Shown in pieces: positions 6,904 to 55,212 of a DNA stretch of 64,000 bases (positions within the stretch are counted from its first letter, which is position 1; every line of letters starts with the position of its first letter). Origin of the DNA: an uncultured Acidobacteriota bacterium (GTDB taxonomy: Bacteria > Acidobacteriota > Polarisedimenticolia > Polarisedimenticolales > DASRJG01). Made by a program: the position numbers and the translations under genes. Location: positions 16,056 to 80,055 of the forward strand of contig CAZYHZ010000009.1 in the NCBI GenBank assembly GCA_964647625.1, in the 5' to 3' direction. The notes beneath the pieces were generated by a model. That model saw nothing but the letters and a program-made list of their open reading frames with translations, did not search any database and was not told where the DNA came from.

Positions 6904-6906
6904 CGA

Positions 6907-8116: not shown

Positions 8117-8126
8117 CCGGCAAATA

Positions 8127-9536
8127 TTATGCCGATCCGGCCGCCTGGCGACGAGAATTCCGGCGCCGGGCGGTCACGCCAGCCCCCCAGCACGCTCCCG
8201 CGATCAGCAGCCCCGCGTACACCGGCTCGAGGGAGAGCCACGGCGTTTCCCTTCGCATCGCGCCGATCACCCAGGCGAGCGAGGTGGCTCCGGCGGCCGC
8301 CATCCCGATGGCCGCCCATCGGGAGTCGGGGCGCAGGGACGGAAAATACGCCCCGAGAATCGGCGCGAGCAGCACCGCGGTCCCGACGCTTCCGAACCCG
8401 TACCAGAGGTTCACCACCGACTGCGACGCGAGCGCGAAAACGGTTGCGAGCAGCGCGCCCGCGACGAGCCCGAGGCGCTCGCCCGTCAGCGTGCTCGCCG
8501 CGATGCGGCCGGCCCGCCCCACGAGGTCCCGCGAGAGCGTGATCCCGGCGTTGAACAGGAAGGAATCGACGGTCGACATCACCGTCGCGATCATCCCGGA
8601 ATAGAAGATGCCGAGAAGCCCCACCGGCAGCAGCATCTCGCCGAGCGCCGGATAGGCGTCGACGCCGCTCGACAGGCGAGGGAGCAGGGCGTGCGCGTAC
8701 ATCCCGGTGAACGTCGTCAATCCGTCGAACAGCGCGAAGAACAGGATGGACACGAGGAGCCCCGTGCGCGCGACGCGCGGCGTGCGCGCCGCGAAGCAGC
8801 GCTGGAAGAAGGTGGGCTCGACGAGCGTCTGCAGGGCGATGACGTACCACGCGATGACGTAGCCCAGGCGTTGCCCGCCGAGCGGCTCGAACATCGATGC
8901 CGGCAGCGCTGCCCGCAGCGCGGAGAGCCCGCCGGTCTTCGCGACGGCGATCGGAAGCAGGATGAGGAATCCGCCGAACATGAGAACGAATTGAAGGGTC
9001 TTCGTCTGCACGACGGCGCGAAACCCCCGAACGCCGATGTAGAGCAAGCAGAATGCGGCGCAGAGGACGACCGAGAGCGATTGCGGCAGCCCCGTCGCGC
9101 GCCGGAGGAGCACGCCGAGCATCAGCAGGTAGGGCGCGGGGAGGGACAGCGCGAGCACCGCCAGCGCGCCCAGAACCCCGGCCGTCCGCCCGTAGGTTTC
9201 GTACAGGACGTCCGGAAGCGTCGCATCGCCGCGCGTGCGTGCCTTCTCGGCATAGAGCAGGGCGAAGAGGAGCGCTCCCACGTAGTACGGGACTCCGAGC
9301 ACGAGCCAGTTCGAGATTCCGTGCACGTAGGAGTACTCGCCGACCCCGAGGACGCCGCCGTACCACGTCGCCACGAGCGTCATCACGAATGCCGGCAGCG
9401 ACAGCGCCCGGCCGGCAAGCAGGAAGTCCCACTGGGCCTCGGCGGGCCGCCGCGCCGAACGCGCGCCGAGGAACACCGTCGCGGCGAGATACGTCAGGAC
9501 GACGGCGAGATCGATCGGCCCCAGCGTTCCGGCCAT
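8127..9536 (-). CDS. Sodium:solute symporter family transporter, probably for thiamine or a precursor
   Basis: FLLAGR, many TM helices, FQRCFAA and ATVMSTVDS; lies downstream of a TPP riboswitch. Confidence 0.85.
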   Translation of the reverse strand: MAGTLGPIDLAVVLTYLAATVFLGARSARRPAEAQWDFLLAGRALSLPAFVMTLVATWYGGVLGVGEYSYVHGISNWLVLGVPYYVGALLFALLYAEKARTRGDATLPDVLYETYGRTAGVLGALAVLALSLPAPYLLMLGVLLRRATGLPQSLSVVLCAAFCLLYIGVRGFRAVVQTKTLQFVLMFGGFLILLPIAVAKTGGLSALRAALPASMFEPLGGQRLGYVIAWYVIALQTLVEPTFFQRCFAARTPRVARTGLLVSILFFALFDGLTTFTGMYAHALLPRLSSGVDAYPALGEMLLPVGLLGIFYSGMIATVMSTVDSFLFNAGITLSRDLVGRAGRIAASTLTGERLGLVAGALLATVFALASQSVVNLWYGFGSVGTAVLLAPILGAYFPSLRPDSRWAAIGMAAAGATSLAWVIGAMRRETPWLSLEPVYAGLLIAGACWGAGVTARRRNSRRQAAGSA

Positions 9537-9544
9537 CGACGACC

Positions 9545-39368: not shown

Positions 39369-39411
39369 GACCTGGCGGCTGGAGTCCGTTTCCGCTCCGA
39401 GTCCGCGTTAC

Positions 39412-39981
39412 TCAATCCGGAAAGCGTTCCGCGTCGAAAATCGATTCGACCGGGATGCTCCATCCCGGCAGCACGTCATCGCCTTCGAGCGTGTCGTCCG
39501 GGCCGAGGACCCGCGGCGCCAGGAGCGTCCGGTACGTCGTGACGCGCCGCCGCTCGGGATCGACGACCCACACGAGCCTGCACCCGGCCGCGAGGTAATC
39601 GGCGACCTTCGTGCGAATCTGATAAGGCCGGTTGGAAGGGGAAAAGATCTCGATCGCAAGATCCGGCGGCCCGTCGATGAAGCGACGGTAGTCGATGCCG
39701 GCGAGCCGCTCTCGCACGACGAACGAGATATCCGGCCCTCGAACCGTGTCCGGATCGCGCGCCAGGACGAAACCGGTCTCGCCGAATACTGCGCCGAGGC
39801 CACGAGGGACGACGAAGTCCTCGAGGAGTCGTTCCAGCTTCCTGCGGACCTGGTCGTGCCACGGAGAGGGAAGCGGCTCCGAGACGAGCCATCCTGCCTC
39901 CAGCTCGTGCCGCTTTTCGTCGTCGGGAAGCACCGCCAGCTCCAATGCGGTCAGCCGCCGACCCTGTTCGTGTCGTTCCAC
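39412..39981 (-). CDS. Uma2 family PD-(D/E)xK endonuclease
   Basis: RHELEAG, PDTVRGPDISF, PDLAIEIFSPS, YLAAG..LVWVVDP and LPGWS motifs; GTG start inferred. Confidence 0.88.
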   Translation of the reverse strand: MERHEQGRRLTALELAVLPDDEKRHELEAGWLVSEPLPSPWHDQVRRKLERLLEDFVVPRGLGAVFGETGFVLARDPDTVRGPDISFVVRERLAGIDYRRFIDGPPDLAIEIFSPSNRPYQIRTKVADYLAAGCRLVWVVDPERRRVTTYRTLLAPRVLGPDDTLEGDDVLPGWSIPVESIFDAERFPD

Positions 39982-40225
39982 GCACGTACGATACGGCGGC
40001 CCACTGGACGCGTCCAGCCGTCGCGACGGTTCCCCGTTGTCGCAATGCAACCCGCTACCGCACGAGCAACGGAACCGTCGATGGGGCCTGGGTCCTCTGA
40101 CATGCGAGGTTCGCCTCAGGCCACCGCGGTGACGGGGTGGTACAAAACGGAAGAGACCAAATCGATCAATGTTTGCGTGGGTCTCCGGAGCCGAAAGCCG
40201 TCCCAGATTTGCGGGGCCGAGGGCG

Positions 40226-40253
40226 GCGGGTTCGATTCCCGCCGCCTCCACCA
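40226..40253 (+). repeat. ssrA: tmRNA-like 3' fragment, att scar copy 1
   Basis: GCGGGTTCGATTCCCGCCGCCTCCACCA gives a T arm, an acceptor strand with U70, A73 and CCA; no matching 5' half upstream. Confidence 0.8.
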
Positions 40254-40486
40254 CACAACTCTTTCTCCTCGCGTCGCTTGCGGCGGGCACGCGTCCGCGT
40301 TGTGCTTCTATCGTGCTCCGCAGTCGGCGCCATGGTTCCCGGCTACCGCGGGAGGCGCGATACGCGCACGACTAATCCAACAAGGGTTCTCGGAAGCGCC
40401 AGGGATCCGAATTAGGGGTGCACAGAGCCCGGCTTGTTCCGATTGCACGCTCGGGCTGAGTAGTTGGAGTGCCGCATTTTCCAATT

Positions 40487-40975
40487 TCATGACGTGCGCT
40501 TCGGATTTGTCGGCAGATGTCTATTGAGAACCAACTTTCCGACAAACGTGATGCCATTCTGATCGAGCTGGAGACGTGCTTTCTCGGTATTGGCGAAATG
40601 GACCCTCCCGGATGCGACCCACAGCCATGCCGCGATGCTTCTGCCCGGTTTCAGATGTTTGCGCAAATGGATTAGGGCGGACCTTCGCTTCGCGATCACC
40701 GTAGAGATCTCATCCTTCTTTGCCGAATGCGGTTCGAGGCCGATCACGGAACGGCTCGGTCCGTGACCGAGCAGGTAGTCCCATCGGTTCTCGTCCGGAT
40801 GCGCCTCACGAAGCGAAGTGTCCAGATTGAGGCTGTCGGCGAAGTCGGATCGGACGCTCTCGTCGATTAGCGCTCGGTGACCGCCTTCCATGGCCATCAG
40901 CCCGTTCATAACGGCTCCGAATAGACCTGATCCATCCACGAGCGCGGAGCGAATTGGCGTGGCCCGGCGCGTCAT
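40487..40975 (-). CDS. Uncharacterised 162 aa protein coupled to the ATPase
   Basis: ATGA overlap with the ATPase stop. LD...RWDY..G...LEPH...K pattern suggests a nuclease-like fold (inference). Confidence 0.75.
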   Translation of the reverse strand: MTRRATPIRSALVDGSGLFGAVMNGLMAMEGGHRALIDESVRSDFADSLNLDTSLREAHPDENRWDYLLGHGPSRSVIGLEPHSAKKDEISTVIAKRRSALIHLRKHLKPGRSIAAWLWVASGRVHFANTEKARLQLDQNGITFVGKLVLNRHLPTNPKRTS

Positions 40976-42117
40976 TCGCCGTGCTCATTCACAGCCGCGC
41001 GAACCGCCTCCCCGAAGCGCGAACTGAAGCCTGTAAGGCCTCCCCAGGCCGCCTCGTTCTCGTCGTCCGATCCTGGGTCTAGGTTTGAGATGTTTTTCGA
41101 CCGAACTCTTCCGTCGCTGTCAAACTTGAGCAGGTGAACGCTGTAGCTCTTGTGAAGCGCGGCTTCGGCTACCTTTTTCATCGACTGTGTTTGTGTTACG
41201 TCGAATCCCTGACACACAAGTTGCCACCGCGCGTTATGTTCCTTGAGTCGTCGCAGCATCCAGATCGCCGTAAGCACATGTGCCGAGTGCGTAGAGAGGA
41301 CCACGCGATAACCGCGCCATAGCAGATCCAGCACGAGCAGGAGGAAAACAGTGAGCGCTTGTGGGTGCAGCCCCATTTCCGGCTCTTCGACGATCACCCA
41401 CTCGATCTCTGGCTGCTTGCGCTTCTTGGTTCTCGGTAGCAGGTGGTAAAGGCCGAGCAACAGGGGTGTAAACTCGCGCTGCCCAGTGGCCCAGGTCATG
41501 AACGGAAGTCCGGCTTTGTCGTGCGTCAGCTTGAGTCGTTTGGCATGTTGTGGATCCAGTTCGAGCGCAATCGATCCCCCATGGAAAACAGCCGAGTCGA
41601 TCAGCTTTCGGTACTCCTGCTTGAGGAGGCGAGGGACGGGGAAGAGCTGATCGCCCCCACGGGCACTGAAGCGGTCGAAGAGGTTTTGGCTGAAGATGCG
41701 AGCGACGACGGGCGTGTCCGACGTTAGTTTCTGAAACGGGGCCGCCCAGCCATCACTAATGAGCATCGAGCGGTGAGCCGGGATGAAGAAGGCTCGCTCC
41801 TTGCCGTTCCCGAGGCGGCTGATGCTCTTGGGTTCGATTTTCGCCCCATCAAGGAGGATCTCAGAGTCGCTTCGCCATGCAGTCCCCATGCCGACGCCGA
41901 AGATGAGGTCGATGAGGACTCCGGGTTCGGCGCGCTGGCCGGCTTCTCGTAGGGCCGAGACGATCTGTTTCCCGTCCATTGCGGTCTTCAGCCACTGAAG
42001 GGCGAGGCTCTTTCCGGTGCCTTGCGCACCCACAATGACAGTCAGGTCTCCGAACTCGAGCTCGGCATCCCCGATCTGCCCGAAGTTGCGAATCGAGAGC
42101 TTCGTGTTCCTCGTCAT
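40972..42117 (-). CDS. ABC-type ATPase (AAA_15/AAA_21-like)
   Basis: IRNFGQI, Walker A GAQGTGKS, IPAHR, signature-like ATGQ, Walker B VIVEEPEMGLHP and H-loop STHS. Confidence 0.9.
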   Translation of the reverse strand: MTRNTKLSIRNFGQIGDAELEFGDLTVIVGAQGTGKSLALQWLKTAMDGKQIVSALREAGQRAEPGVLIDLIFGVGMGTAWRSDSEILLDGAKIEPKSISRLGNGKERAFFIPAHRSMLISDGWAAPFQKLTSDTPVVARIFSQNLFDRFSARGGDQLFPVPRLLKQEYRKLIDSAVFHGGSIALELDPQHAKRLKLTHDKAGLPFMTWATGQREFTPLLLGLYHLLPRTKKRKQPEIEWVIVEEPEMGLHPQALTVFLLLVLDLLWRGYRVVLSTHSAHVLTAIWMLRRLKEHNARWQLVCQGFDVTQTQSMKKVAEAALHKSYSVHLLKFDSDGRVRSKNISNLDPGSDDENEAAWGGLTGFSSRFGEAVRAAVNEHGE

Positions 42118-42540
42118 ACCGCACCTCCACGGATCACATCGAGGTGGTTTCGCAAGAGCGCTTGGATTGGTCTTGTGCCGTCTCAGCCGTGCCCCACGGG
42201 CCGATCCGGTGAGCTTCCGAATTGCGAAGTATACCCCCCAATGTCCATTGGGCGAGAACACACTCCTGGCGCAAGTGAGCCAAGACAATACCTGACACCG
42301 CCGACGGCCGGAACGAGGAAGTCGATGCCGCGAATTGATGGAGTGAAGGATCCTTGGGGTGCGTCCCCGAGTCTTTGTCGAGCGTGGCTCGTGACACCCG
42401 CGTGGTCATCGTGACATTCCGCGTCGCGTGGCGAGCGCGGATCCGCGCCTCCCGCACAGCAACGGTAGGCTTGGATATGTAAAATGAGCGAATGGGATCT
42501 GGTTTCGCCGATCTCGCGCCGCCGCTCCGGTTCGCAGCCA

Positions 42541-45500
42541 ATGAGGGCTACTGAGATTTCTGCGGCCGCGCCCAAATTCCCCGACGCTTCGCACGCGCTG
42601 CATGGGTTTCGCTACCAGCTGCTGCAAACGCTCGGCGCGTGGCTGAACCTGCGGCCGAACGAGGAGCTTTGGATCGAAGTGTCCGAGGATTACGCGGTTT
42701 GCTCAGCGCACCAGTACAACGCTGTGCAGGTCAAGGGCTCACGCGCCGCGTCGGGGCCAACGCCGTACAGCTTGCAATCGAGTGATGTGCGTGCTGCGCT
42801 GCGCCGTTTCTGGACGCGGGCGGAATCTTCATCGCGAGAGCGCCTTACGTTTCTGGCCAATGGCGGCGTGGCGGTCGAACGGGACCATCCTTTTCCTAGG
42901 GGCGGCGGTGGGCTCGACTACTGGACGGCTGCGGCGCGCGGCGCGGACACCGCGCCGTTGCGCGCGGCGTTGTTGGCGTTGTTCGATGGCGAACCTCTCG
43001 GCGTCTGGCTCGCGCAGCAGCCGAGCGATGACGAATTGCGCGCACGGCTCCTGAGGCGCGTGACCTGGGCGCTTTGCGCTGCGAGCACCGACGATCTTTC
43101 CGCGCAGCTGCTCGACCAGATCGGCGCCGTCTACATCGAGCGCGGTTTGCCGGTGACGGCGGCGTCGGCCGGTTGGCATGCGCTGTGTGACCAGGTCTTT
43201 GAGGTGGCATGTCGGTCTGATCCCGCGACGCGACGCTTGACCTCGGTGGATTTGCACCGCGCAATCGAAGACACCCTCGCCGCGCTCAACATCGCAAAGA
43301 GGATGGGCGCTGCCGCGGGTGATGCCGCGGCCTATGTCCAGAGCGTCCTTGTGGGCGAACTCGCCGAAGTGCTGCCCGCGACAACCGCGCGCGCCCAGAC
43401 GATCGCCGCCATCCAATCAACCGTTGGCGCTGAACCGTTAGTGTGGCTGCATGGCGGCCACGGCGTCGGAAAGTCAACGTTGGCGCACCTTCTGGCACGA
43501 CGCTACGGCGGTCGCTGGTTGACCTTGGATCTGCGGCTTGCTCAGGCCGATCGCGGCGGCGCGCTTGCCGCCTGGCGCGAGCTGATGCGCGCCATCACTT
43601 CCAAGGGAATGCCGGACGGTATCGTGCTCGATGATTTCGCCGCCGCCGCCGTTGTTGCGTTGGGCGGCCGTCTGGCCGCACTGACTCAACAAATGGCGAG
43701 CAGGGGCGGGCGCGTAGTCGTCACGTCTCCACAACCGGCTTCACCAGCGCGGTTGGCGGCGCTTGGCGCGACACCGAACGCAAACGTTTCAGCGCCGTAC
43801 TTCACCGACACCGACATCCAAGATCTGATCAGTCGTACACCGTCACCGGAGTCCGCGCAAATCGAGGCCTGGCGCTTGTTCATCCGCATGGCCACGGGCG
43901 GCGGTCACCCGCTGCTGGTGGCGACGAAGGTCGCCAGCCTGCGCGCTCGCGGTTGGCCCGCGAGCGGACTGGCCGAAGACATCGGCAAGACCAGTGAGGC
44001 CATCCAGATCACGCGTGACGAAGCGCGTCGGGCGCTGCTCCGCGAACTCGCCGCGCTCGACCAAGCGCTCTCGCTCGATGTTGGTGCCCTCCTCCGCCGC
44101 ATCGGCGTGGTGTTCGATCGCGTCGATACGGGCCTTGTATCGGTTCTCGCAAAACTGCCGCCTGCCATAGCCAGGGCGTCGGACGCGCTTGCCGTGCTGC
44201 GCGGCAGTTGGCTCGAAGCGTTGCCCGACGGCGACTTGCGCCTGTCGCCCGTCATCTCCGACATCAGTACCGACGTGGCGGCGGAAGATATCCAACGCTG
44301 GTGCCGCGCCGCCGCGGAATACTGGTTGCGTAAGCGGGTGCTCAACGAACGAACCCTGCCGCTCTGTTTCTGGAACGCCTTTATCGGTCATCACGACTGG
44401 GTGCTGATGAAGCTGTGCGAGACGCTGCAGAGCCTCGATCACGAGATCCTGCGTGGAGCGGTCGCTCTTCTTTCGCCGATGACCGCGTTGCGGACAGACG
44501 TGTCGCTCTACGAGCACAACCCCATTGTCGGCGTCAATTTGCGACTGCTCCAGTTCCAGGTGGCGGCAGCGGTCGAATCCGACGGCTCGGGCGCCGACAT
44601 CGCCAAGCGTCTGCTGGTGGAGCTGAGTCAGATCGAAGATCGCGACGTTTACGCGCTGATGACGGCCGTTTCCGCTTCCAAGGTGCTGATGACGCAGACC
44701 GTCCACCTCGCGCCAGAGGACATTGTCGAATGTGCGTTGCGGCTACGCCAGGTCACGCCGCGCGTACAGGAATTGGGCGGCCCAACGCTGAAGCTCCCCC
44801 ACTGTGACATCGCGCGACAGTTCGGGGAAGACGTGGACCCTTCGGACTTTCTATTCGCCAGTTCCCTCTCCAAAAGTCAGGATTCGGCGGGCTTCCTGCG
44901 TACGATTGAAGCGCTCGACGCGATCGGGGCGGATGAGCGTCGCCGTTTCCTCGCCGCCTCCGGCGCGATCTTTGATGGGCTCTCGCTTTTCGTGAACTCC
45001 GGATGGTCCTGTGACCAGCTCGAGGATCGCGAGATGGTGGCCGCGCTCCGATGTTATGAGTGCGCTGCCACGATCGCGGAGCGGTGGGAAGTGGTGGACC
45101 TGAATGTCGAACTGGCGGTAGCACAATCCGTGATCCTGGACGAAGCTCTCAAAGACATGGATCGCGCGCTCGCTATCGTGGAAGCCGCCGTCGCTCGTTT
45201 TGGCCCGCTGCCCGCCCTGGTCAGGCAGAAGGCGAAGGTCCTCGGCCACAACGACCGCGACGCGGAGGCCGCCGATTTGATGATGAGCATCGAGGACACG
45301 GTCGGCGGCAACTCCAAGCTCGAACGCGGTCTTTCATTGCGCGATGGTGGCACGTCGGCCGCGCGGAGCGGGCGCTTTGACATCGCGGCGCGCCTGTTCG
45401 CCAAGGCCATTCAAGCCATCGACGAAAGTGGTGGACACGCGGCGCTCGCTGCGGGCTTGCGCGTCGATCTTGCGATGGCACTCTGGGATTCAAAAGATCG

Positions 45501-46593
45501 CGCAGCGGCGCTGCTCAGACTCGCCGACGCCCTCGATATTGTCGGCACGCTTGATGCTTCCGCATCCCGTCAACACGAGCGCGCGCACCAGTTCGCGCGC
45601 GCTGCGTGCGGACTGTTCTTGAGTGACGTGGGTTCTTTTCCGCTCAACTCCCGGCCAAACATCGCCTATGGCGGCGCCTCGGTTCTGTCGCTCTCGCGTG
45701 AGGAACTCGTCAACGTTGAACTGAAGCCGCTCGCGGACAATTGGCGCATCCTGGCGCTGGTCGAAGCCGAGTGCGATCTCGATGTCGGCATCGATGCGCG
45801 TTCGCGCGCCGCGCAGACAGGGCCGGCGCTTGCGTCCATCGAATCGATGATCGCGTTCGCGCGATACGGCGGCGGACTTATGAGCGATGACCTGGAGGCC
45901 GCGCTTGGCCTGGGCATTCCAGCGACGTCGGCTGCGCGAATGCGCCGCTTGGCTATCGACAAAAACGATGAGCCTGTCCGCGTCGACTTCGACAACGTGA
46001 CGGCGACGCCGCTGGCCGACTTACTCGCCGATCCGGTGTGGCGCGACGCAGTGATGCGGCTTCCGGTTGACATTCTTGTCGCCCGTCGCTTGCAGGGGAA
46101 ATGGTCGCCGGATCTGCCCGATCGCTTGCGCGCGGCCTGCGGAAAAGTGTTCGGCAATGAAGCGGGGATGGACGCCGTGCTAAAGGCGGCCACGGGGCGC
46201 TATGCCATCGGACCAACCGAGCCCCTCAATCATTCGATAGCGGCGGCCGCCTCGCGCACCGACGAGGAACTCGCGATCGATCCATCGATCCGATTCAACC
46301 GCGACATGCTGTTCGTGGGCCATTTGTCTCAAAGCATAGCGCGGCATGCGCTTGAAACGCTGATCGTGCCGGTGCTGCAGCGCGGATGGGCGGACGTGCT
46401 CGCCAACCAACGGTTCCGCTTGCGCGCGCCGACGCGTTGCTGTCCCGTCATCGAAGACGCTATTGCTGCCGTGCCGAAACATGGGCTGCCGGCTGCGGCG
46501 CGGCTGGTTCTAGCGGCGGCAACGGCGGTTGGAGAAAGCCTGCCCGAGAGTTGGGAAACAATGCTCGTTGCCCTCGCGCGGGGATCAATCTGA
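42541..46593 (+). CDS. Cap4-like nuclease / STAND NTPase / helical-repeat protein (Avs-like)
   Basis: GFRYQ..E..EDY..QVK, then GGHGVGKST, IVLDD, VVVTS and GGHPLLV, then a long Ala/Leu-rich helical C-terminus. Start may be 42484. Confidence 0.8.
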   Translation: MRATEISAAAPKFPDASHALHGFRYQLLQTLGAWLNLRPNEELWIEVSEDYAVCSAHQYNAVQVKGSRAASGPTPYSLQSSDVRAALRRFWTRAESSSRERLTFLANGGVAVERDHPFPRGGGGLDYWTAAARGADTAPLRAALLALFDGEPLGVWLAQQPSDDELRARLLRRVTWALCAASTDDLSAQLLDQIGAVYIERGLPVTAASAGWHALCDQVFEVACRSDPATRRLTSVDLHRAIEDTLAALNIAKRMGAAAGDAAAYVQSVLVGELAEVLPATTARAQTIAAIQSTVGAEPLVWLHGGHGVGKSTLAHLLARRYGGRWLTLDLRLAQADRGGALAAWRELMRAITSKGMPDGIVLDDFAAAAVVALGGRLAALTQQMASRGGRVVVTSPQPASPARLAALGATPNANVSAPYFTDTDIQDLISRTPSPESAQIEAWRLFIRMATGGGHPLLVATKVASLRARGWPASGLAEDIGKTSEAIQITRDEARRALLRELAALDQALSLDVGALLRRIGVVFDRVDTGLVSVLAKLPPAIARASDALAVLRGSWLEALPDGDLRLSPVISDISTDVAAEDIQRWCRAAAEYWLRKRVLNERTLPLCFWNAFIGHHDWVLMKLCETLQSLDHEILRGAVALLSPMTALRTDVSLYEHNPIVGVNLRLLQFQVAAAVESDGSGADIAKRLLVELSQIEDRDVYALMTAVSASKVLMTQTVHLAPEDIVECALRLRQVTPRVQELGGPTLKLPHCDIARQFGEDVDPSDFLFASSLSKSQDSAGFLRTIEALDAIGADERRRFLAASGAIFDGLSLFVNSGWSCDQLEDREMVAALRCYECAATIAERWEVVDLNVELAVAQSVILDEALKDMDRALAIVEAAVARFGPLPALVRQKAKVLGHNDRDAEAADLMMSIEDTVGGNSKLERGLSLRDGGTSAARSGRFDIAARLFAKAIQAIDESGGHAALAAGLRVDLAMALWDSKDRAAALLRLADALDIVGTLDASASRQHERAHQFARAACGLFLSDVGSFPLNSRPNIAYGGASVLSLSREELVNVELKPLADNWRILALVEAECDLDVGIDARSRAAQTGPALASIESMIAFARYGGGLMSDDLEAALGLGIPATSAARMRRLAIDKNDEPVRVDFDNVTATPLADLLADPVWRDAVMRLPVDILVARRLQGKWSPDLPDRLRAACGKVFGNEAGMDAVLKAATGRYAIGPTEPLNHSIAAAASRTDEELAIDPSIRFNRDMLFVGHLSQSIARHALETLIVPVLQRGWADVLANQRFRLRAPTRCCPVIEDAIAAVPKHGLPAAARLVLAAATAVGESLPESWETMLVALARGSI

Positions 46594-46806
46594 AGTTGCC
46601 GTGCGGCACGATTGAAACGAGCGAATCATCGTCACGATCGCACGCTGGGTGGGTTCCGGTCGGCTCAGCCGCACCTCGGAATCACGTGCGCCGTCGGGAT
46701 ACACGAGCCTCAGGGAGCGAGGCCTGATGGGAAGGTTGCCGCCATGGAACGCCATGGCGAGCACGCGCTAATATGCTCGGCTCTCGCCCGGCAAGGAGCC
46801 GGTCAT

Positions 46807-48117
46807 ATGGCAGATTGCTTCGCGTTTCTCGACACGAACACTCTTCTCCACTACCGTCGATTCTCGGAAGTCGACTGGCCTTCCGAGCTCTCCAGCCCGA
46901 CGGTTACCATCATCATCTTGCCCACCGTCATTGACGAGCTCGACGCGCTCAAATCGGAGCACCAGCTTAAGCACATCCGCACGCGTGCGAAGAGCCTATG
47001 TCAGCATGTCTTGGAACTGACCGTTGACGGAGACCCGGTGGCGCTCAAGTCGAATGTGCGCCTGCAACTGACACCTGATTCGGCCTCCCCGACAAACCAA
47101 GAAGTCGAATCAGGTGGTGATGACCGCATTCTGTCGGACGTCCAGGAGCACGCCCGCGCGCATCCGGGCGCTCGGCACGTCCTCGTCACTGCCGACACAG
47201 GGCTCACTCTACGAGCCCGACGACGCGCCCTGGAGGTCGTTTCACTTCGCGATGCCCTTCTTCTTCCGGACGAGAGGGACCTACTCGAACGACAAGTACA
47301 AACTCTTCGCGCGCAGCTCGCTGACCTCGAAAATAATCTCCCGAACCTCCATCTGGTCGTCGGGAACAACTCGGACCGGTTCAATTGTGAATTGGACCCC
47401 GACCTCGAACCTACGGCCGGTCTCATCGCGCAGCGAATGGCTGAAGTGCGGGCGAAGTACCCCAAGCTTAAGTCGAGCACCGAATTCGATGGGATAGCGC
47501 TCGACTCGCCGTTCGCCAAGGCGATTGCTGCATTGCAGGCGAATCCATTACACACCGTGCTACCGAAGGACGTCGATCAGTACAACACCGGTTTGGACTC
47601 GTTTTACGTCGATTACGAACGATACTTGCCTGCTCTAATCGAACATGAAAACAATGTGCGCCGGACGGCGCGATTGGAATTAACGCTGCGCAACGACGGC
47701 GGGGCTCCGGCCGAAGACGTCGACATCATGCTGCACCTCCCTGATGGTTTCGAGGTCTTCGATGCCGAGGAGCGGCCCGAGCCACCCCCGGCTCCGAAGC
47801 CGCCGATTCGCCCGAACTCCTTGGCCGAACGCTTCGGTGCTGCGGGGGGGATAGGACTTCGTATCCCTTCGCTAACACACCTAGGTCCACCCCCAAACGT
47901 ATCCGTTCCCACAATCAAGAAGACCAACAGTTACCGAGTTGATTTTCACGTTCGGAACCTCAAGCACGGATTCGCCGTTGCTCTCCGGCCACTCTTCTTG
48001 GCGTTCCCAACAGGCGGCGTCCGCTCGTTCGCGTTCGAATACGCGCTCGCACCTTCCAATCATCCGAAGCCGGCCTGCGGAAAGATCCACGCGCACTGTC
48101 GCCAGCGTTCAACTTAA
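46807..48117 (+). CDS. PIN-domain protein with coiled coil and unknown C-terminal domain
   Basis: FLDTN, VIDELD.LK, DDRIL and LVTAD.GL motifs. Confidence 0.8.
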   Translation: MADCFAFLDTNTLLHYRRFSEVDWPSELSSPTVTIIILPTVIDELDALKSEHQLKHIRTRAKSLCQHVLELTVDGDPVALKSNVRLQLTPDSASPTNQEVESGGDDRILSDVQEHARAHPGARHVLVTADTGLTLRARRRALEVVSLRDALLLPDERDLLERQVQTLRAQLADLENNLPNLHLVVGNNSDRFNCELDPDLEPTAGLIAQRMAEVRAKYPKLKSSTEFDGIALDSPFAKAIAALQANPLHTVLPKDVDQYNTGLDSFYVDYERYLPALIEHENNVRRTARLELTLRNDGGAPAEDVDIMLHLPDGFEVFDAEERPEPPPAPKPPIRPNSLAERFGAAGGIGLRIPSLTHLGPPPNVSVPTIKKTNSYRVDFHVRNLKHGFAVALRPLFLAFPTGGVRSFAFEYALAPSNHPKPACGKIHAHCRQRST

Positions 48118-48240
48118 AGAGTTTCCTCCTCCAGGGTCTTCTGGAACGCTCGTGCGACAGCGAGGATGGCTTTCCTCGCTGCCTCCGGTAGCTCCGGCCA
48201 GACTCCCACGAGTAGTTCCAACGCCTGACTGTTGCCGACC
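48114..48240 (-). other. Short ORF remnant (LVGVWPELPEAARKAIL) next to the att scar
   Basis: Translated in the ORF track. Resembles short helical peptides recalled from att-adjacent DNA; no clear start. Confidence 0.3.
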
Positions 48241-48432
48241 GTGGGTTCCCGCCGTTGTGCTCCTGCTATGCTCCCGCAGCGTCCGGCCCTGGCCCTGAAG
48301 TGTCCGCGCTCCGTCCGACTCTTGCATACCGGGCGAACCGCAACTCCTTCCGCCTGGCCAACTTCTGACCCGTACCGACCGACTTTCGACCCAACCTGTC
48401 CGGCTTTGGCCAACCCTGAATCGAGTGCTGGT

Positions 48433-48460
48433 GCGGGTTCGATTCCCGCCGCCTCCACCA
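48433..48460 (+). repeat. ssrA: tmRNA-like 3' fragment, att scar copy 2
   Basis: Identical to 40226-40253. Confidence 0.8.
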
Positions 48461-48677
48461 CAACAGCTTCGCATCCACCACTTTCGAGAAACGTACTCCC
48501 GGCGGCCCGGCGGCAGCCCACTTTCAACGTCGTTACCGATTACGACCGATACCGGCCATTCTCGGAGATTTCTTGGCGGGGAAATCGGGCGATCCAATTT
48601 CGAAGCGTTGACAGGCCTTGCTCCTGACGGTACACAGCCACCCGCACTTCGGGACCGAACAGGAGCGGGGCAAACGA

Positions 48678-51600
48678 ATGATCGTGACGAGTCGAATCGT
48701 GCGACTCATCGGTCTCACCGTGCTAACGGCGTTGGTCCCGCTGCTCCCGACACCCGCGAGCGCTCAGGCCGAGACCGTCATCGCTTCGGACAACTTCAAT
48801 CGCTCCAATGAGACTCCGTTCGCCAGTACGGGAAACTGGGGTCACGTCATTGCGGGTAACTACCAGGGCACTTCGAGTCTGGTCAGCAATCAAGTGCGAA
48901 GCGCTTCGCAAGAGGGGATCTATTACTGGAAGGGCGCGGGAACATTCGACCCCACGAAGCAGTTCGCGAGAGAGCGGGCCGTGCAAAAGGACGGCGAGCT
49001 CGGGCTCGTCCTCCTGGGTGGACCGGATCAAGCCCTCATGGTCAGCTGGGGTCCGCCCGGCGTCGGCAACACGCTTTACATCTATTGGTACGCGGGGGGT
49101 GCCGCTCAGTCCGTGCTGGCCACCGCGCCCTCGTCTTTGGCCAATGGAGACATCATCGAGGCCGCTCTCCAAGGCGGGTTCATCTACGCGAAGGTCAATG
49201 GAATCATCGTCGCCAAGGTCCCCAATACGACCACTCTGACGTCGGGGCGGCCCGGGTTCATCACGTATCTCGATCCGAATCTGCCGGCTCAGGTCTCCAT
49301 TCTCGACGACTGGTCCGCCGGCGCGCCGGCCGCGTACACGATCGGCGGAACGATCACGGAAAACGCCGCCGGGCTGAGCGGAGTCCTGGTGACCGCCAGT
49401 GACGGGCTCAGCGCGACGGCGACGACCAACGGATCCGGTGCCTACACGATCTCGGGGGTGCCGGCCGGCGCAACCTCCATCGTGCTGACGCCGACGCTGT
49501 CCGGTCACACGATGACGCCGACGTCGCGCGCGGTGGCCGGCCCGGTGAACGCGAACGTGACGGGTCAGAATTTCACGAGCACCCCCGTGACGGGTGTCAC
49601 GCTGACGATCAACACGAGCCACGGCACCGTCACACGGAATCCCGATCTGCCTTCGTATGCGTTCGGGACGAACGTCACGCTGACTCCGGTGCCCGACGCC
49701 GGGTACCAGTTCGCCGGATGGAGCGGCGACGTCCCGGTAGGGCACGAATCCGACAATCCGCTGGTCGTCACGATGGATCAGAACCGGACGATCACCGCCG
49801 GGTTCGTGTCGCCCGGTGTCGTCGCCTTCGATCACTTCGATCGAGCCGACGAGACCCCGCTCACCGTCGGAGGCAACTGGCAGAAGCCGTTCTCGGGAGG
49901 CTCCGCCAATCTCACGAGCAACCACGTCGCGGGCGCGTCGGGCGAAGCACTTTACTACTGGCAAGGCCTCGGCACGTTCGACAACACGCGACAGTACGCG
50001 CGGGCAAGAGTGGTGCAGACGGGCGGGCAGGCGGGTCTGTTGCTGCTCGGCGGTCCCAATCAAGCGATCGCCATCGCGTGGGGTGCCGGGCAGCTCTACA
50101 TCTACTGGTACTCCAACGGAAACTACCAAGCCGAGCTGGCGCGGCAAACTTCCACGCTTCAGGTCGGCGACGAGATCGAAGCCGTGCTCGAGCAAGGAAA
50201 GATCTTTGCGAAGATCAACGGCACCGTCATCAAGAACGTGGCGAATACGACGAGCCTGACCTCCGGTCGGCCGGGGTTTGAAACGTATCTGTCGGGCGGA
50301 GCCATCGACGACTGGGAAGCAGGGACACCGCAGGACTTTTCGATCGGTGGGACGATCACCGAGAATGGGAGTGGGCTGAGCGGCGTGTCGGTGACGGCGA
50401 CCGGCGGATACAGTGGAAACGTGACCACCGGCGTCGACGGCACGTACACGATTGCGGGAGTTCCGTCCGGCGTCACGTCGGTCCTCCTGACCCCCACGCT
50501 GACGGGACATACGATGAGCCCGGTCACGAGATCGGTGACAGGTCCTGCTCTGGGAAACGTCACGGGTCAAGACTTCGCAAGCACGCTGATCACGAACGTG
50601 GCGCTGACCACGACGGCAAACCACGGAACCGTGGCGAGGGATCCGGATCTGGCGGCGTATTCGTACGGCGCGACCGTCACGGTGACGCCGAACCCCGCTC
50701 CGGGTTACCACTTCACCCGCTGGGGTGGCGACGTTCCGCCGGGCGACGAGACGGACAACCCGCTGGTCGTGTCGATGACTCAGGACCGGTCGATCTCGGC
50801 GATCTTCGTATCGTCGGAGGTCCTGGCATCCGATTACTTCGAGCGCCCCGACGAAACGCCCATCGCCGTCACGGGTGACTGGCGGCAGACGTTCTCGGGC
50901 GTGACCGCCGATCTGACGAATCGCCGCGTGACGGGCGGCCCGGGTGACGCGGTGTACTACTGGCAGGGCGCCGGCGCCTTCAGCAACTCGAGGCAGTTCG
51001 CGCGTGCGCGCGTCGCCCAGGCCGGAGGGGAAGTGGGCCTCGTGTTGCTCGGCGGAGCCAACCAGGGGTTCGTACTGACGTGGGCCGGGGGCCAGCTTTA
51101 CTTCTATTGGTATCTGAACGGCACGCATCAAGGGGATCTCCTGATCCTTCCTTCGACGATCGCGACCGGCGACACGATCGAAGCGGTGCTCGATTCCGGG
51201 ACCATCTACGGAAAGGTCAATGGCGTCGACATCGGAAGCCTCGCGAATTCGACGAGCTTGTCGTCCGGGCTCCCGGGGTTCCAGCTGAGGCTCGCCGGTG
51301 GCGCCCTCGACGATTGGGAGGCCGGAACGCTTGCGGTGAGCTGCACGGGCGCACCCAACGGAACGCCCTGCAACGACGGCAACCCGTGCACGTTCAACGA
51401 CGCGTGCACGGGGGGAACGTGCGCGGGAACCCCTGGATCGGCTCCCACGGAGGTTCAAGGCGTCGTCCTCGACGGGCAAACTCCCACGGGCCTGGCTTGG
51501 GCGGCTGCAAGTGGAGCGGTCTATGACGTGGCCTCGGGGGCGCTCTCCGATCTACGCGTCGATGGAACGACGAGCGCAGCGTGCCTGTCGAACGACGGTA

Positions 51601-51749
51601 CGGCCGCCGGCTACGTCGAAAACCGCCCGGACCCGGCGCCGGGTGCCGGCTACTACTACATCGTCCGGGCGCAGAGCGCCTGCGGCTCCGGAACCTACGG
51701 ATTCGCCTCGACCGGTCAGGAGCGCGTGCCGACCGCCGCTTGCCCCTGA
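48678..51749 (+). CDS. Large secreted modular repeat protein
   Basis: Signal peptide; three copies of an (S/F)D.F.R..ETP...DDW.AG module; two carboxypeptidase-regulatory-like and two InlB-B-repeat-like modules; Cys-rich repeat and Cys-containing tail. Confidence 0.85.
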   Translation: MIVTSRIVRLIGLTVLTALVPLLPTPASAQAETVIASDNFNRSNETPFASTGNWGHVIAGNYQGTSSLVSNQVRSASQEGIYYWKGAGTFDPTKQFARERAVQKDGELGLVLLGGPDQALMVSWGPPGVGNTLYIYWYAGGAAQSVLATAPSSLANGDIIEAALQGGFIYAKVNGIIVAKVPNTTTLTSGRPGFITYLDPNLPAQVSILDDWSAGAPAAYTIGGTITENAAGLSGVLVTASDGLSATATTNGSGAYTISGVPAGATSIVLTPTLSGHTMTPTSRAVAGPVNANVTGQNFTSTPVTGVTLTINTSHGTVTRNPDLPSYAFGTNVTLTPVPDAGYQFAGWSGDVPVGHESDNPLVVTMDQNRTITAGFVSPGVVAFDHFDRADETPLTVGGNWQKPFSGGSANLTSNHVAGASGEALYYWQGLGTFDNTRQYARARVVQTGGQAGLLLLGGPNQAIAIAWGAGQLYIYWYSNGNYQAELARQTSTLQVGDEIEAVLEQGKIFAKINGTVIKNVANTTSLTSGRPGFETYLSGGAIDDWEAGTPQDFSIGGTITENGSGLSGVSVTATGGYSGNVTTGVDGTYTIAGVPSGVTSVLLTPTLTGHTMSPVTRSVTGPALGNVTGQDFASTLITNVALTTTANHGTVARDPDLAAYSYGATVTVTPNPAPGYHFTRWGGDVPPGDETDNPLVVSMTQDRSISAIFVSSEVLASDYFERPDETPIAVTGDWRQTFSGVTADLTNRRVTGGPGDAVYYWQGAGAFSNSRQFARARVAQAGGEVGLVLLGGANQGFVLTWAGGQLYFYWYLNGTHQGDLLILPSTIATGDTIEAVLDSGTIYGKVNGVDIGSLANSTSLSSGLPGFQLRLAGGALDDWEAGTLAVSCTGAPNGTPCNDGNPCTFNDACTGGTCAGTPGSAPTEVQGVVLDGQTPTGLAWAAASGAVYDVASGALSDLRVDGTTSAACLSNDGTAAGYVENRPDPAPGAGYYYIVRAQSACGSGTYGFASTGQERVPTAACP

Positions 51750-51774
51750 TCGGTCAACTGATTCGGAGCCCGTT

Positions 51775-51802
51775 GCGGGTTCGATTCCCGCCGCGTCGAG
51801 CA
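51775..51802 (+). repeat. ssrA: Degenerate tmRNA-like 3' fragment, copy 3
   Basis: First 20 nt (GCGGGTTCGATTCCCGCCGC) are identical to copies 1 and 2, then GTCGAGCA replaces CTCCACCA. Confidence 0.65.
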
Positions 51803-52071
51803 CCCCCGCGACCCGAATGTCAATCTGCCGGAGCGTGCATTCCTTCGGCGAAGGAGCGGTCCTCAGGGCCTCGTCACCACTCTGCGCGGTTCGAGTTCAC
51901 CAACGTTCGCTCTAGAACGGGTAGGGCCGCAACATCACTTTCGATAAGCGCGGCTCAAGTACAGCGAGCACGTGCAGCATCATTGCGAGCGCACCTCTAT
52001 CCGCGGGAACCCCCGGTGTGTACATCGGTCATATCCGGCTGCGGGCCACTGCCGGTCGCATGAGGTGCTCC

Positions 52072-55000
52072 ATGAGATGGTCATCCCGGCTGTTCGCGGC
52101 TTCGATCCTCTGCTCCGCTGCGGTCTCCACCGTCCTTGCAGAACTGCCGACATCGCCCGGCGGATTGACGGTCACGGGCCAGGACGGAGGCGTCGTCGAC
52201 CTGCCGCTCCGCCACACCAAAGTCAGCATCGAGGTCACCGCATTCGTTGCGCGAACGACCGTCGAGCAGACCTTCGGCAACCCGTACGGGACGCCGATCG
52301 ACGCGGTCTACACCTTTCCGCTGGGCGATCGTGCGGCCGTCGATGACTTCGAGCTGACGGTCGGCGATCGCACCATTCGTGGCGAGATCCAGCGCTCCGA
52401 GGAGGCCCGCCAGACTTACGAGCGGGCGCGAGCGTCGGGCTACCGTGCGGCGCTCCTCGAGCAGCAGCGGCCCAACATCTTCACCCAGTCCGTCGCGAAC
52501 CTGGAGCCGGGTAAGACGGTCGTCGTTCGGCTTCGGACGGTGGAGACACTCCGGTACGAGCGCGGTGTTTACCAGGTGGCGTTCCCTCTCGTCGTCGCGC
52601 CTCGGTACACGCGCGGCGGATCTTCGGCCGGCGCCGCGGCCTGCGTGCCGGTCCTCCCGCCCGAGTCCCGCTCGGGCCACGACGTCGAGATCGATGCGAC
52701 GATCGACGCCGGCGTTCCGCTTCACGACCTCCGCAGCGCGAGCCATCGGGTCGTCATCGACCACGCGGGAGGCACGTCGGCGCACGTCCGCTTGGCGGAA
52801 GACGACCGGATCCCGAACAAGGACTTCCTCCTGCAATGGAGCGTCGCCTCCGATCGTCCGGCTGTTGGATTCATGGCCCATCGCTCCGGTCTGGATGGTT
52901 TCTTCACGCTCCTCGTCCAGCCCAAAGCGGAGATCGAAGCCCGGGACGCGGCGCCCAAGGAGATCACGCTCGTCGTGGATACGTCCGGGAGCATGTCCGG
53001 CACCCCGCTCGATGCGAGCAAGCGCTTCATCGCGAGGGTGCTGCACGCCTTGGGCCCGCGCGACACGTTCAACATCGTTCGATTCTCCGGAGACAACGAG
53101 GTGTTCTCGAGAGATCCCCTTCCGAACGATCCCGAAGCGATCGATCGGGCCATCGCCTGGGTCAACGCGGCGGAAGGGGGTGGAGGGACCGAGATGCTGG
53201 CGGCGATGCGGGCGGCGTTTGCGCGGCCGGTCGATCCGAACCGCCTGCGGATCGTCGTCTTCCTCACCGACGGTGAAGTAGGAGAGGACGAGGAGATCCT
53301 CCGCGATATCTCCAAGGTTCTCGGTGAAGCGCGAATCTACACGGTCGGAATCGGGACGTCGGTGAATCGGTACCTCCTCGACCGCATGGCCGATCTCGGC
53401 CGCGGCGCCTTCATCGCGATTCGCCCCGACGAGACCGCGGACGACGCGCTCGAGGCGTTCCGGTCGTGGGTCGCCCTTCCCTATCTGACCGACCTCACGG
53501 TCGATTGGGGTGCGCTGCCCGTGGCCGACGTCGCGCCCGATCCCATTCGCGACCTCGGCTCGGGCCAAACGCTCGCCCTGGTCGGACGCTACCTCCAGGC
53601 CGCTGAAGGCGACGTCGTCGTGCGCGGCAAGCTCGGGGGGCACTACTGGGAGCACCGCATTCACGTCGCGCTTCCGGATTCGGAGACGAGACATGCGCCT
53701 CTCGCGGCACTGTGGGCTCGCGGCCGGATCGAAAATCTCCTACGGCCGGCTCCCGGAGCCGCGCCCGATGCGGTCCGGGCCGAGGTGACCTCGCTGGCCA
53801 TCGACTTCCGGCTGTTGTCACCGTTCACCTCGTTCGTCGCCGTCGACGATTCGACCGTCGTGAACGCCGCGGGGACGGCGCCGGTCGTGCGGCAAGCGGT
53901 TCCTCTGCCCGAAGGAATCTCGTTCGAAGGGGTCTTCGGTGCGAAGGGGCCCCCGGCGTTCGCCGTGAGCGGGGGCGGTGGACGGCCCGAGGATCCGGGG
54001 GCCGCAGAGGGCTCCACTCTGAACTCGGGTGGTCTGCGGATCCGCGTCATCGACAACTCGGACAAGTCGGAGGTGATCGGCGCGTTCGTCACCCTCGACA
54101 GCACGAGCAAGCTCGTCGCGAAGACGACCACCGCCACCGACGTCAACGGCACCGCGCTGTTCCCGGTTCTCCGAGCGGGGGGCGGCTATGTCATCACAGT
54201 CATCATGGACGGGTATTCGGGGATGCGGCAGGAGGTCACCGTCGTCAACGCCCAGACCAAGGACGTCCTGTTCGCCCTCGCTCCCGAGCACGTCGAGCTC
54301 GTGAAGGTGATGGCGGACAACAGCGCCACCGTCGATCTCGACCAGAGCCAAACGTCCACCAAGTTCTCCGGGGAGTTCATCGCCGACCTTCCGGTCGCCG
54401 GCCGCTTCGCTCAGAACGTCCTCGCGCTCGCTCCCGGCGTGCAAGACCCCGACGGCGACGGAAACCCGAACGTTGACGGGGCACGCGAGCGCGACTTCAG
54501 GACCCAGGTCGCGGGAGTCGGCAACGTCGATCCGTTGACCGGGACGTTCCTCAACCTGGTGGCCAGCGATTCGATCGAAGACCTGACCACAGTGACCGCG
54601 GGCGCGGGCGCCGAGTTCGGCCGCGCGCAAGGTGGGTTCGCGCAGATCATCCAAAAACAAGGGTCGAACGATTTCGAGGACCTCTCGGAAGACGGCTCGC
54701 AGCTTCGCCAGGACGCATTCCGAGTTCTCGCGGATCTGGCCGACGACGGCCGGCTCTCACCAGCGGACGGCAAGCCCGCTCTCGCGGCGTTGCTCGCGGC
54801 TCAGAACCGCTCGGGGGCCGTCGCGCGCGACACCGTGACGAATGCGATCGCGACCTGGGCGTTCGCGGAAGCGGAGAGGGCGCTACCGGCCGAACCGTGG
54901 ATCGCCTCCGCTCGGGCGAAAGCAGTACGGCAGCTCGCGGCGATTGCGCTTGCCGAGGGTTGGCCGGCTCGGCCGGGCGGCACGCTCGATCACGACGCCA

Positions 55001-55209
55001 CCGCCTGGGCGACCTTTGTGCTGGCGATTCTCCGCCCGGAAGCCGCACGGACGGCCCACGGGAACTCCCACGCGATACCCGCCGAGCTCGGCCGGATCGA
55101 GGCGGCTGCTGCTCGTCCGAAAGACGGAACGCGTCCGCTCGTGTCGACCGGTCGTGCCCCCCTGGAGCGTCTCATCGCCGCGATCGACCGGGGGCACCTG
55201 ATGATTTGA
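52072..55209 (+). CDS. VIT-VWA protein fused to a carboxypeptidase-regulatory-like domain, a TonB plug and a helical tail
   Basis: VIT (VEQTF.NP...YTFPL), MIDAS DTSGSMSG and FLTDG, then LPVAGR..LALAPGV...AEFGRAQGG...KQGSND. Confidence 0.75.
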   Translation: MRWSSRLFAASILCSAAVSTVLAELPTSPGGLTVTGQDGGVVDLPLRHTKVSIEVTAFVARTTVEQTFGNPYGTPIDAVYTFPLGDRAAVDDFELTVGDRTIRGEIQRSEEARQTYERARASGYRAALLEQQRPNIFTQSVANLEPGKTVVVRLRTVETLRYERGVYQVAFPLVVAPRYTRGGSSAGAAACVPVLPPESRSGHDVEIDATIDAGVPLHDLRSASHRVVIDHAGGTSAHVRLAEDDRIPNKDFLLQWSVASDRPAVGFMAHRSGLDGFFTLLVQPKAEIEARDAAPKEITLVVDTSGSMSGTPLDASKRFIARVLHALGPRDTFNIVRFSGDNEVFSRDPLPNDPEAIDRAIAWVNAAEGGGGTEMLAAMRAAFARPVDPNRLRIVVFLTDGEVGEDEEILRDISKVLGEARIYTVGIGTSVNRYLLDRMADLGRGAFIAIRPDETADDALEAFRSWVALPYLTDLTVDWGALPVADVAPDPIRDLGSGQTLALVGRYLQAAEGDVVVRGKLGGHYWEHRIHVALPDSETRHAPLAALWARGRIENLLRPAPGAAPDAVRAEVTSLAIDFRLLSPFTSFVAVDDSTVVNAAGTAPVVRQAVPLPEGISFEGVFGAKGPPAFAVSGGGGRPEDPGAAEGSTLNSGGLRIRVIDNSDKSEVIGAFVTLDSTSKLVAKTTTATDVNGTALFPVLRAGGGYVITVIMDGYSGMRQEVTVVNAQTKDVLFALAPEHVELVKVMADNSATVDLDQSQTSTKFSGEFIADLPVAGRFAQNVLALAPGVQDPDGDGNPNVDGARERDFRTQVAGVGNVDPLTGTFLNLVASDSIEDLTTVTAGAGAEFGRAQGGFAQIIQKQGSNDFEDLSEDGSQLRQDAFRVLADLADDGRLSPADGKPALAALLAAQNRSGAVARDTVTNAIATWAFAEAERALPAEPWIASARAKAVRQLAAIALAEGWPARPGGTLDHDATAWATFVLAILRPEAARTAHGNSHAIPAELGRIEAAAARPKDGTRPLVSTGRAPLERLIAAIDRGHLMI

Positions 55210-55212
55210 GCG

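Follow-up and report, generated by a model that had tools for sequence, protein, structure and literature searches.

What is the cluster of four genes that lies between two identical short repeats in the genome of an uncultured Acidobacteriota bacterium, and do these genes belong together? The window that we analysed is a stretch of 64,000 nucleotides (nt) of high-GC DNA (67%), carried by contig C9 (CAZYHZ010000009.1) of a draft assembly with 153 contigs and a genome of 4.6 Mb. A first-pass annotation of this DNA had read the four genes as a compact candidate defence island made up of two divergent pairs under shared control. Our analysis upholds the island and argues against the shared control. 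We put the probability at roughly 0.65 that positions 40256-48432 are an acquired island without an integrase, bounded by att repeats that correspond to the end of a transfer-messenger RNA (tmRNA), and that the island holds three independent candidate anti-phage modules: an ATPase with its small partner (PDC-M56), a large STAND receptor, and a protein with a PIN domain. We infer the defence role of all four genes, and likewise the triggers to which they would respond. The features of the island and its edges are as follows.

40226..40255, plus strand: left 30-nt repeat ("scar 1"), an attL-type core
40256..40486, no strand: left island end, 231 nt of non-coding DNA that holds a degenerate arm motif, GTTGTGCTTCTATCGTGCTC, at 40299
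40487..40975, minus strand: PDC-M56B, 162 amino acids (aa), the small partner and predicted nuclease effector
40972..42117, minus strand: PDC-M56A, an ABC-type ATPase of 381 aa (PADLOC, Pfam)
42118..42540, no strand: divergent spacer, without recognisable promoter, operator or RNA family
42541..46593, plus strand: Avs-like receptor of 1350 aa (1369 aa from 42484), with Cap4-like nuclease, STAND NTPase and sensor
46807..48117, plus strand: stand-alone PIN_4 nuclease of 436 aa (Pfam PIN_4, structure model)
48114..48432, minus strand: right-end module, with an antisense coding tail (…VWPELPEAARKAILAVARAF…) and an arm containing GTTGTGCTCCTG and GTCCGR repeats
48433..48462, plus strand: right 30-nt repeat ("scar 2"), an attR-type core

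The physical layout proposed in the first-pass annotation proved to be accurate. The span 40226-48462 is occupied by four genes, each of them intact, that form two divergent pairs, and all are of nuclease or NTP-sensor types (an ABC ATPase, a PD-(D/E)xK-like partner, a Cap4-like nuclease-STAND protein and a PIN_4 protein). The intervening region, given earlier as about 420 bp, measures 366 nt (42118-42483) or, with the STAND gene starting at 42541, 423 nt; the start lies at either 42484 or 42541, and homologues favour the latter. The true start of the ATPase is the ATG at 42117, which has a GGAGGTG ribosome-binding site ahead of it. The ATPase stop and the start of the 162-aa gene share 4 nt, an overlap that we read as translational coupling. 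Between the STAND and PIN genes there is a gap of 213 nt, and the PIN gene has its own AAGGAG ribosome-binding site.

GCGGGTTCGATTCCCGCCGCCTCCACCACA is a perfect 30-nt direct repeat, with copies at 40226-40255 and 48433-48462. That identical scars flank the four genes had been pointed out before; their att-type nature, as copies of a tmRNA 3' end, had gone unmentioned. Nucleotides 1-28 of the repeat are identical to the T-arm, acceptor strand and CCA at the 3' end of the host's real tmRNA, the gene for which is found at the end of another contig (C55:29808-30159, 180.8 bits), which stops 28 nt beyond the gene. As in islands that use a tmRNA gene as their target, the direct repeats duplicate the target's 3' end, here in 28 of 30 nt. 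When the genome was searched with the tmRNA-core pattern, the reversed-pattern control gave 0 matches. ARAGORN called no tRNA or tmRNA at either 30-nt copy, and the Rfam tmRNA model scored the two copies at 33.1 and 21.7 bits, under its gathering threshold of 47 bits. A "mini-tmRNA" or decayed second ssrA gene at scar 1 was considered and rejected: Rfam aligned GGGGCCGA and the T-arm as a tmRNA lacking its body, at 33 bits (below 47), and the 325 nt ahead of each scar, when aligned locally with the body of the real tmRNA, scored within the shuffle null.

DNA next to the repeats carries a second type of signal. The arm that lies to the left of scar 2 (~190-209 nt) is 70-74% identical to DNA found to the left of tmRNA-core copies elsewhere, on the host's own contig C53 and in genomes G002, G023, G003 and G012 (five genomes in all). 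Its conserved columns consist of an invariant GTTGTGCTCCTG and four to six direct GTCCGR repeats, a motif with a background of 0.27 per 100 nt, and this pattern is the one expected for predicted recombinase arm-binding sites. A degenerate form of the 20-nt arm motif also stands inside the left end, 44 nt from the core, at 40299. With up to three mismatches allowed, the motif matches the 4.6-Mb genome six times, in four cases with a tmRNA core less than 200 nt away, and its reversed-pattern control has 0 matches. An antisense open reading frame (ORF) at 48114-48527 runs through the arm and was rejected as a genuine 137-aa gene. Because its mismatches with the C53 copy are spread evenly across codon positions (32/29/38), the arm portion is not evolving as coding sequence, and the ORF has no family match in Pfam, PADLOC or NCBIfam. 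Conservation of the encoded peptide is confined to its C-terminal tail (…WPELPE..R.AIL…), which four genomes share with in-frame indels and which we take for a relic or a very short ORF. The consensus of the tail reads …VWP[EG]LPE.AR.A[IV]… (window 48200-48432; L017:12826-13050, minus strand; L056, L057, L058 and L059).

Composition and distribution agree in showing that the island is foreign, horizontally acquired DNA. GC content at third codon positions (GC3) is 0.66-0.74 in the island genes against 0.84-0.86 in flanking core genes, and the shift in composition falls at the repeats. The STAND gene and the PDC-M56B gene are each absent from all 60 relatives searched, out to class level.

The island contains no integrase, since all four of its ORFs are otherwise assigned, and the tyrosine integrase profile (PF00589) has no match on contigs C9, C53 and C55. 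The last two of these contigs reveal a second array of tmRNA cores at the real tmRNA gene. C55 and C53 overlap by 55 nt (C55:29808-30187; C53 in reverse complement, C53rc, 1-11771), and the order along them is the tmRNA gene, a 5.5-kb island, an exact core, a 6.1-kb island and a degenerate core. The 5.5-kb island, which ends in the conserved arm and the exact core, has two Hsp20 genes, DegP and a PaaX-like regulator; the 6.1-kb island, which ends in the degenerate core, has BrnT/BrnA, an SDR oxidoreductase, AraC, aldo-keto reductases and LysR. Neither holds an integrase. An island in G023 that shares the arm has no integrase among its 10 largest ORFs and no PF00589 match on its contig, and the G002 contig that carries the arm likewise has no PF00589 match. 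Because it has no integrase yet has kept both att arms, the island in the window is like a cis-mobilisable element (CIME). A tmRNA-targeting tyrosine integrase encoded elsewhere would then mobilise it in trans. Both terminal degenerate cores, one downstream of the island in the window (51775-51802) and one at the end of the second array (C53rc 11744-11771), match the tmRNA core over the left 17-20 nt and depart from it only in the final 8-11 nt, as expected for putative attR-type hybrids in which a left half from the element is joined to a native right half. This pattern points to a crossover near the boundary between T-stem and acceptor stem. Many relatives (among them G006, G008, G016 and G044) hold several copies of the 28-nt tmRNA end, with up to 13 matches per genome, and in one case (G017:C4:81804-82307) four copies ~159 nt apart form a short tandem array.

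We then considered the cargo. The ATPase and its partner match a listed candidate system over their full length. PADLOC identified PDC-M56A at 3.2e-115 (residues 63-434 of the long ORF against positions 3-379 of 382 in the model) and PDC-M56B at 1.1e-19 (residues 7-150 against 7-150 of 151); gene order and the 4-nt overlap agree as well, and there is no structural difference from the described system. PDC-M56 stands for phage defence candidate, multi-gene number 56 (Payne et al. 2024, bioRxiv 10.1101/2024.01.29.577857), and the PDC systems were found through their embedding in BREX, DISARM or type I restriction-modification loci (bioRxiv 10.1101/2024.01.29.577857). The adjacency of the two genes and their 4-nt overlap recur unchanged at L045-L048, which represent four fetched places in two gene neighbourhoods, the one beside toxin-antitoxin pairs and the other with a large type IIG-like methyltransferase gene on one side of the pair and an HNH gene on the other. 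To judge by these sequence comparisons, it is true that the ATPase and partner are a real conserved pair, matching PDC-M56. At the same four places the partner is better conserved than the ATPase (58-61% against 33-37% identity).

The ATPase contains the Pfam domains AAA_15/AAA_21, with Walker A (GAQGTGKS), Walker B (VIVEEPE) and H-loop (STHS) all present. Its ATPase domain is of the OLD/AriA/GajA-like kind, matching the OLD-family ATPase 6p74 at 1.8e-6, and AriA is its second-best PADLOC match (5e-20). The 162-aa partner has no Pfam or NCBIfam family and no match to AriB/Toprim in PADLOC. Its large, strongly conserved family numbers at least 440 homologue clusters at 55-68% identity, and D66, E81-P-H83 and K96 are invariant in it. 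An AlphaFold model built from 36 sequences reached a predicted local distance difference test score (pLDDT) of 93. The Foldseek matches of this model in the PDB are individually weak (E 0.014-0.1), and the top ranks are mostly PD-(D/E)xK nuclease domains; VC1899, Card1, Cdn1, Can2, N.BspD6I, PspGI and the Mrr domain of Avs4 were matched, along with a few cytidine deaminases at lower probability. In the predicted model the invariant residues occupy the catalytic positions of a PD-(D/E)xK fold, and we infer, as a fold assignment of our own, that the partner is a predicted nuclease effector with a PD-(D/E)xK-like core. PARIS, Septu, Gabija and HEC-01 to HEC-03 also pair an ABC/OLD-type ATPase with a small nuclease partner, but the partner in the island is not Toprim (AriB), HNH (PtuB), NERD or PIN; it is without a Pfam family and has an E-P-H core. 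The pair does not qualify as PARIS, which has a Toprim AriB partner, whereas the fold matches of the partner seen here are PD-(D/E)xK domains.

The second module is a single gene, the product of which shows the tripartite architecture of Avs proteins: an N-terminal effector, a STAND NTPase and a C-terminal repeat sensor, here a helical/TPR region of ~900 aa. Its family is conserved over the full length in 42 clusters at 39-66% identity, and extends to 488 clusters at E<=1e-30 in a 50%-identity library. Residues that do not vary in the alignment include E65, E68, D69 and Q82-V-K84, a PD-(D/E)xK signature, as well as Walker A (G324..GVGKS331) and Walker B (D383/D384). When 26 family members were compared with domain models, the N-terminal nuclease domain of LmuA (PADLOC) was matched by 20 and Pfam Cap4_nuclease by 2; AAA_16 and NPHP3_N were matched by 25, TPR by 15, and NACHT and nSTAND by many. 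Because of these matches to LmuA/Cap4, AAA_16/NPHP3_N/NACHT/nSTAND and TPR, we read the architecture of the 1350-aa protein as that of a Cap4-nuclease antiviral STAND. At least 90 Avs families have been defined, and the Cap4 nuclease is the N-terminal effector of Avs3 and Avs7 (bioRxiv 10.64898/2026.01.04.697583); most likely, the protein in the island belongs to one of the uncharacterised Avs families. It resembles SeAvs3/SeAvs7-type Avs in combining a Cap4/DUF4297-type nuclease with a STAND NTPase and a long helical/TPR sensor, in being encoded by a single gene and in its mobile or defence contexts; it differs from them in that its family is mostly alphaproteobacterial and falls outside the PADLOC Avs models. 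The closest relatives in named genomes are mostly from Alphaproteobacteria. Homologues elsewhere stand alone, with integrases, type I restriction-modification genes, a TerB/BrxC-like/helicase cluster, Mrr, HNH and a mer operon as neighbours. At the closest loci (L038/L039, 318-1181; L041, 7073-7900) an unannotated gene of 275-287 aa lies directly upstream on the same strand. If those genes are related, the copy in the window could be missing a possible partner gene.

The third module is the PIN protein, which matches Pfam PIN_4 at 1.9e-13 and phrog_2765 at 1.6e-7. Its acidic residues D9, E44, D105/D106 and D130 are invariant among 11 sequences. In the structure model (pLDDT 83) a long helical linker joins a PIN fold to a C-terminal beta-sandwich of integrin-calf or macroglobulin type; Foldseek matched the PIN protein 1o4w at 1.6e-6 and, for the C-terminal part, Ig-like/MG-like folds. 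PhoH/YlaK-type PIN_4 proteins share the N-terminal PIN_4 domain with its full acidic tetrad, but the C-terminus of the island protein is a helical linker and beta-sandwich and not the PhoH ATPase. Nor is this a VapBC pair: the protein has 436 aa, against ~130 aa for the toxin, and the 213-nt gap upstream of its gene contains no antitoxin ORF. The family is rare, with 11 clusters at 23-33% identity. Its gene is found alone in three contexts, namely an island with Zorya-like, type ISP restriction-modification and KAP genes, a prophage beside type III restriction-modification genes, and a molybdenum-cofactor cluster.

The question of whether these modules form a unit was addressed by comparing their neighbourhoods elsewhere, with 19 STAND loci fetched (~14 distinct, 6-8 kb per side) and three PIN loci. 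None of the 19 STAND loci holds a homologue of PIN, PDC-M56A or PDC-M56B within those 6-8 kb, none of the three PIN loci holds a STAND or PDC-M56 homologue, and the PDC-M56 loci (two neighbourhoods, four places) have neither a STAND nor a PIN homologue. The two pairs of the first-pass annotation thus fared differently, as the ATPase and its partner are a conserved pair and the STAND and PIN genes, correctly described as neighbours, are not. One might still argue that STAND and PIN act as a two-gene system in which PIN is a second RNase effector activated in trans, or a regulator of the STAND protein; the genes are adjacent on the same strand of the same island, and some Avs systems have accessory effector genes, such as Avs2-trypsin-MBL (bioRxiv 10.64898/2026.08.25.746987). 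We regard this as distinctly unlikely, given the absence of the combination from all 19 STAND and all three PIN loci, the 213-nt gap, the separate AAGGAG site and the fact that the STAND protein already carries an intact nuclease effector of its own. By these sequence data, a role for the PIN protein as partner of the STAND receptor is not supported. We see equally little likelihood in the proposal that all four genes are one co-regulated unit under shared divergent control. The gene pairs do diverge from a long spacer of 366-423 nt, but a search of the spacer for a sigma-70-type promoter gave no match, the search for operators that the first-pass annotation had suggested turned up no convincing palindrome, no Rfam family matched, and the spacer was not conserved at any homologous locus compared. 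For these reasons shared divergent control is unsupported, and the modules on either side are separate at all other loci examined. Each module probably has its own promoter, and the arrangement looks like three independent modules that came to lie side by side by accretion rather than a four-gene unit maintained by selection.

A different objection is that the island may have nothing to do with defence: PDC-M56 and the PIN protein could stabilise the island, whether as addiction or toxin-antitoxin-like modules or as housekeeping nucleases, and the STAND protein could be a signalling ATPase. The defence activity of all the modules is presumptive, PIN domains are typical of the toxins of toxin-antitoxin pairs, AAA_21 is annotated as "putative AbiEii toxin", and one PIN homologue is located among molybdenum-cofactor genes. 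However, the PIN protein has 436 aa and no antitoxin gene, the nuclease, NTPase and repeat sensor of the STAND protein are those of the antiviral STAND type, and restriction-modification, Zorya-like, BrxC-like, KAP, Mrr and HNH genes abound in the neighbourhoods of homologues. We consider this explanation unlikely. It is scarcely credible that misassembly or chance accounts for the repeats and that the island is no discrete unit. The assembly is indeed a draft of 153 contigs in which the contig of the real tmRNA ends 28 nt past the gene. But the 55-nt overlap of C55 and C53 suggests an assembly k-mer near 55, and since the k-mer is near that length, a 30-nt repeat is too short to have caused a false join; a chimeric assembly at the repeats was rejected on this ground, with the repeat (30 nt) shorter than the contig overlap (55 nt). 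In addition, the reversed-pattern control had 0 matches in the genome, the 209-nt arm beside the core is conserved in five genomes, and the shift in composition coincides with the repeats.

Several observations weigh against our preferred reading, that of an acquired, integrase-less island with three independent anti-phage modules. Neither scar forms part of an intact tmRNA or tRNA gene, the island lies away from the tmRNA gene, and with no integrase nearby, site-specific integration at this locus is presumptive. The nuclease call for the small partner draws on weak fold matches (best E 0.014, template-modelling score ~0.3), and the partner carries an E-x-H motif where E-x-K is expected. PDC-M56 itself is one of 145 "untested phage defence candidates", in the term used by its authors (bioRxiv 10.1101/2024.01.29.577857). 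PADLOC, which the first-pass annotation had recommended running, recognised the ATPase and partner as PDC-M56; the PIN family matches no PADLOC model, and no PADLOC Avs/AVAST model was matched by any of the 26 STAND members at E<=0.01. A profile of the STAND family also found no solved Avs chain in the PDB at E<=1. Finally, one of the three PIN contexts is a molybdenum-cofactor gene cluster, and with only three contexts available there may be a facultative interaction of STAND and PIN in this lineage.

The surroundings of the island show that it sits within a larger insertion. In same-genus genomes, amine-oxidase or rubrerythrin and hemE genes come immediately after AIM24. Because AIM24 directly abuts the amine-oxidase/rubrerythrin genes there, positions 39369-55212 (15.8 kb) represent an insertion in the window. 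The insertion consists, in order, of a Uma2 gene; scar 1, the island and scar 2; the gene for a 1043-aa surface-repeat protein; the degenerate core at 51775-51802; and the gene for a VIT-VWA protein. Two of these features lie outside the island and have yet to be listed.

39412..39981, minus strand: Uma2-family PD-(D/E)xK protein (Pfam Uma2, 2.5e-31; PADLOC PDC-S03, 7e-18)
51775..51802, plus strand: degenerate tmRNA-core copy ("scar 3*"), with its left 20 nt intact and a different right end

The Uma2 gene is thus located just outside the island, beyond the left repeat, as the first-pass annotation had stated. It has many paralogues in the host and its relatives, which make up a multicopy family, and relatives show no synteny between Uma2 and AIM24. 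We rejected the idea that an attL for a Uma2 "cassette" marks the left edge of the insertion, since 39369-39411 contains no core-like sequence. To the right of scar 2, a second cassette (48463-51802) contains a single gene, which encodes the secreted 1043-aa protein, in which Flg_new_2 and CarboxypepD_reg domains were recognised. Within this gene ~1.1 kb is repeated at 67% identity, and its stop is 25 nt before the degenerate core. The 15.8-kb stretch is missing in the same-genus genomes G002 and G008, and G005 and G013 have inserts of their own at this position, 5.5 and 9 kb long (L029-L033). Because these two genomes carry different inserts there, the spot between AIM24 and amine-oxidase genes is a hot spot of variability. 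Like CIMEs and tandem islands at tRNA/tmRNA genes, the island has att-type repeats of the tmRNA 3' end, arm DNA at both ends, no integrase, and a place in an array of cassettes, with a parallel array at the real ssrA gene (C55/C53). Unlike them, its array lies away from the tmRNA gene, in the 15.8-kb insertion between AIM24 and the amine-oxidase gene.

On the preferred reading, each module would act through its own mechanism. By analogy with PARIS, Septu, Gabija and HEC, the ATPase of PDC-M56 may be a sensor or scaffold that keeps the small nuclease inactive until a phage cue is received; the cue would release or activate the partner, leading to cleavage of nucleic acid and aborted infection. 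In the STAND protein, the C-terminal helical/TPR domain may bind a conserved phage protein, upon which NTPase-driven oligomerisation would assemble the Cap4-like domains so that they cut double-stranded DNA. DNA cleavage by Cap4 after oligomerisation has been shown for Avs3 and Avs7 (bioRxiv 10.64898/2026.01.04.697583). The PIN protein might be a nuclease gated by its beta-sandwich, which is likely to be a ligand-binding or autoinhibitory part; of the three proposals this is the weakest.

A broader reading, which we put forward tentatively and consider doubtful, would make the island a member of a family of integrase-less cassettes of several kb. Each cassette would end in a module of ~350 bp, composed of the antisense ORF tail, the arm with GTTGTGCTCCTG and its four to six direct GTCCGR repeats, and the 28-nt tmRNA core, and a recombinase acting in trans would shuffle the cassettes among tmRNA-derived att sites, ectopic ones included. 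Separately from this, the PIN/beta-sandwich protein and the Cap4-STAND family could each constitute a new single-gene defence system.

Taken by itself, the island appears to be a fairly ordinary defence island, in which one candidate system is listed and two single-gene candidates are not. It provides three compact candidates for phage-defence assays, namely PDC-M56, a Cap4-STAND family outside the PADLOC models and a rare PIN/beta-sandwich protein. It further illustrates, in clean form, putative defence cargo in an integrase-less cassette that is bounded by tmRNA ends and sited away from the tmRNA gene. Such a cassette bears on how defence islands assemble and move, without overturning current ideas. 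If the broader reading were true, this bacterial lineage would possess an integron-like system for the exchange of defence and stress cargo.

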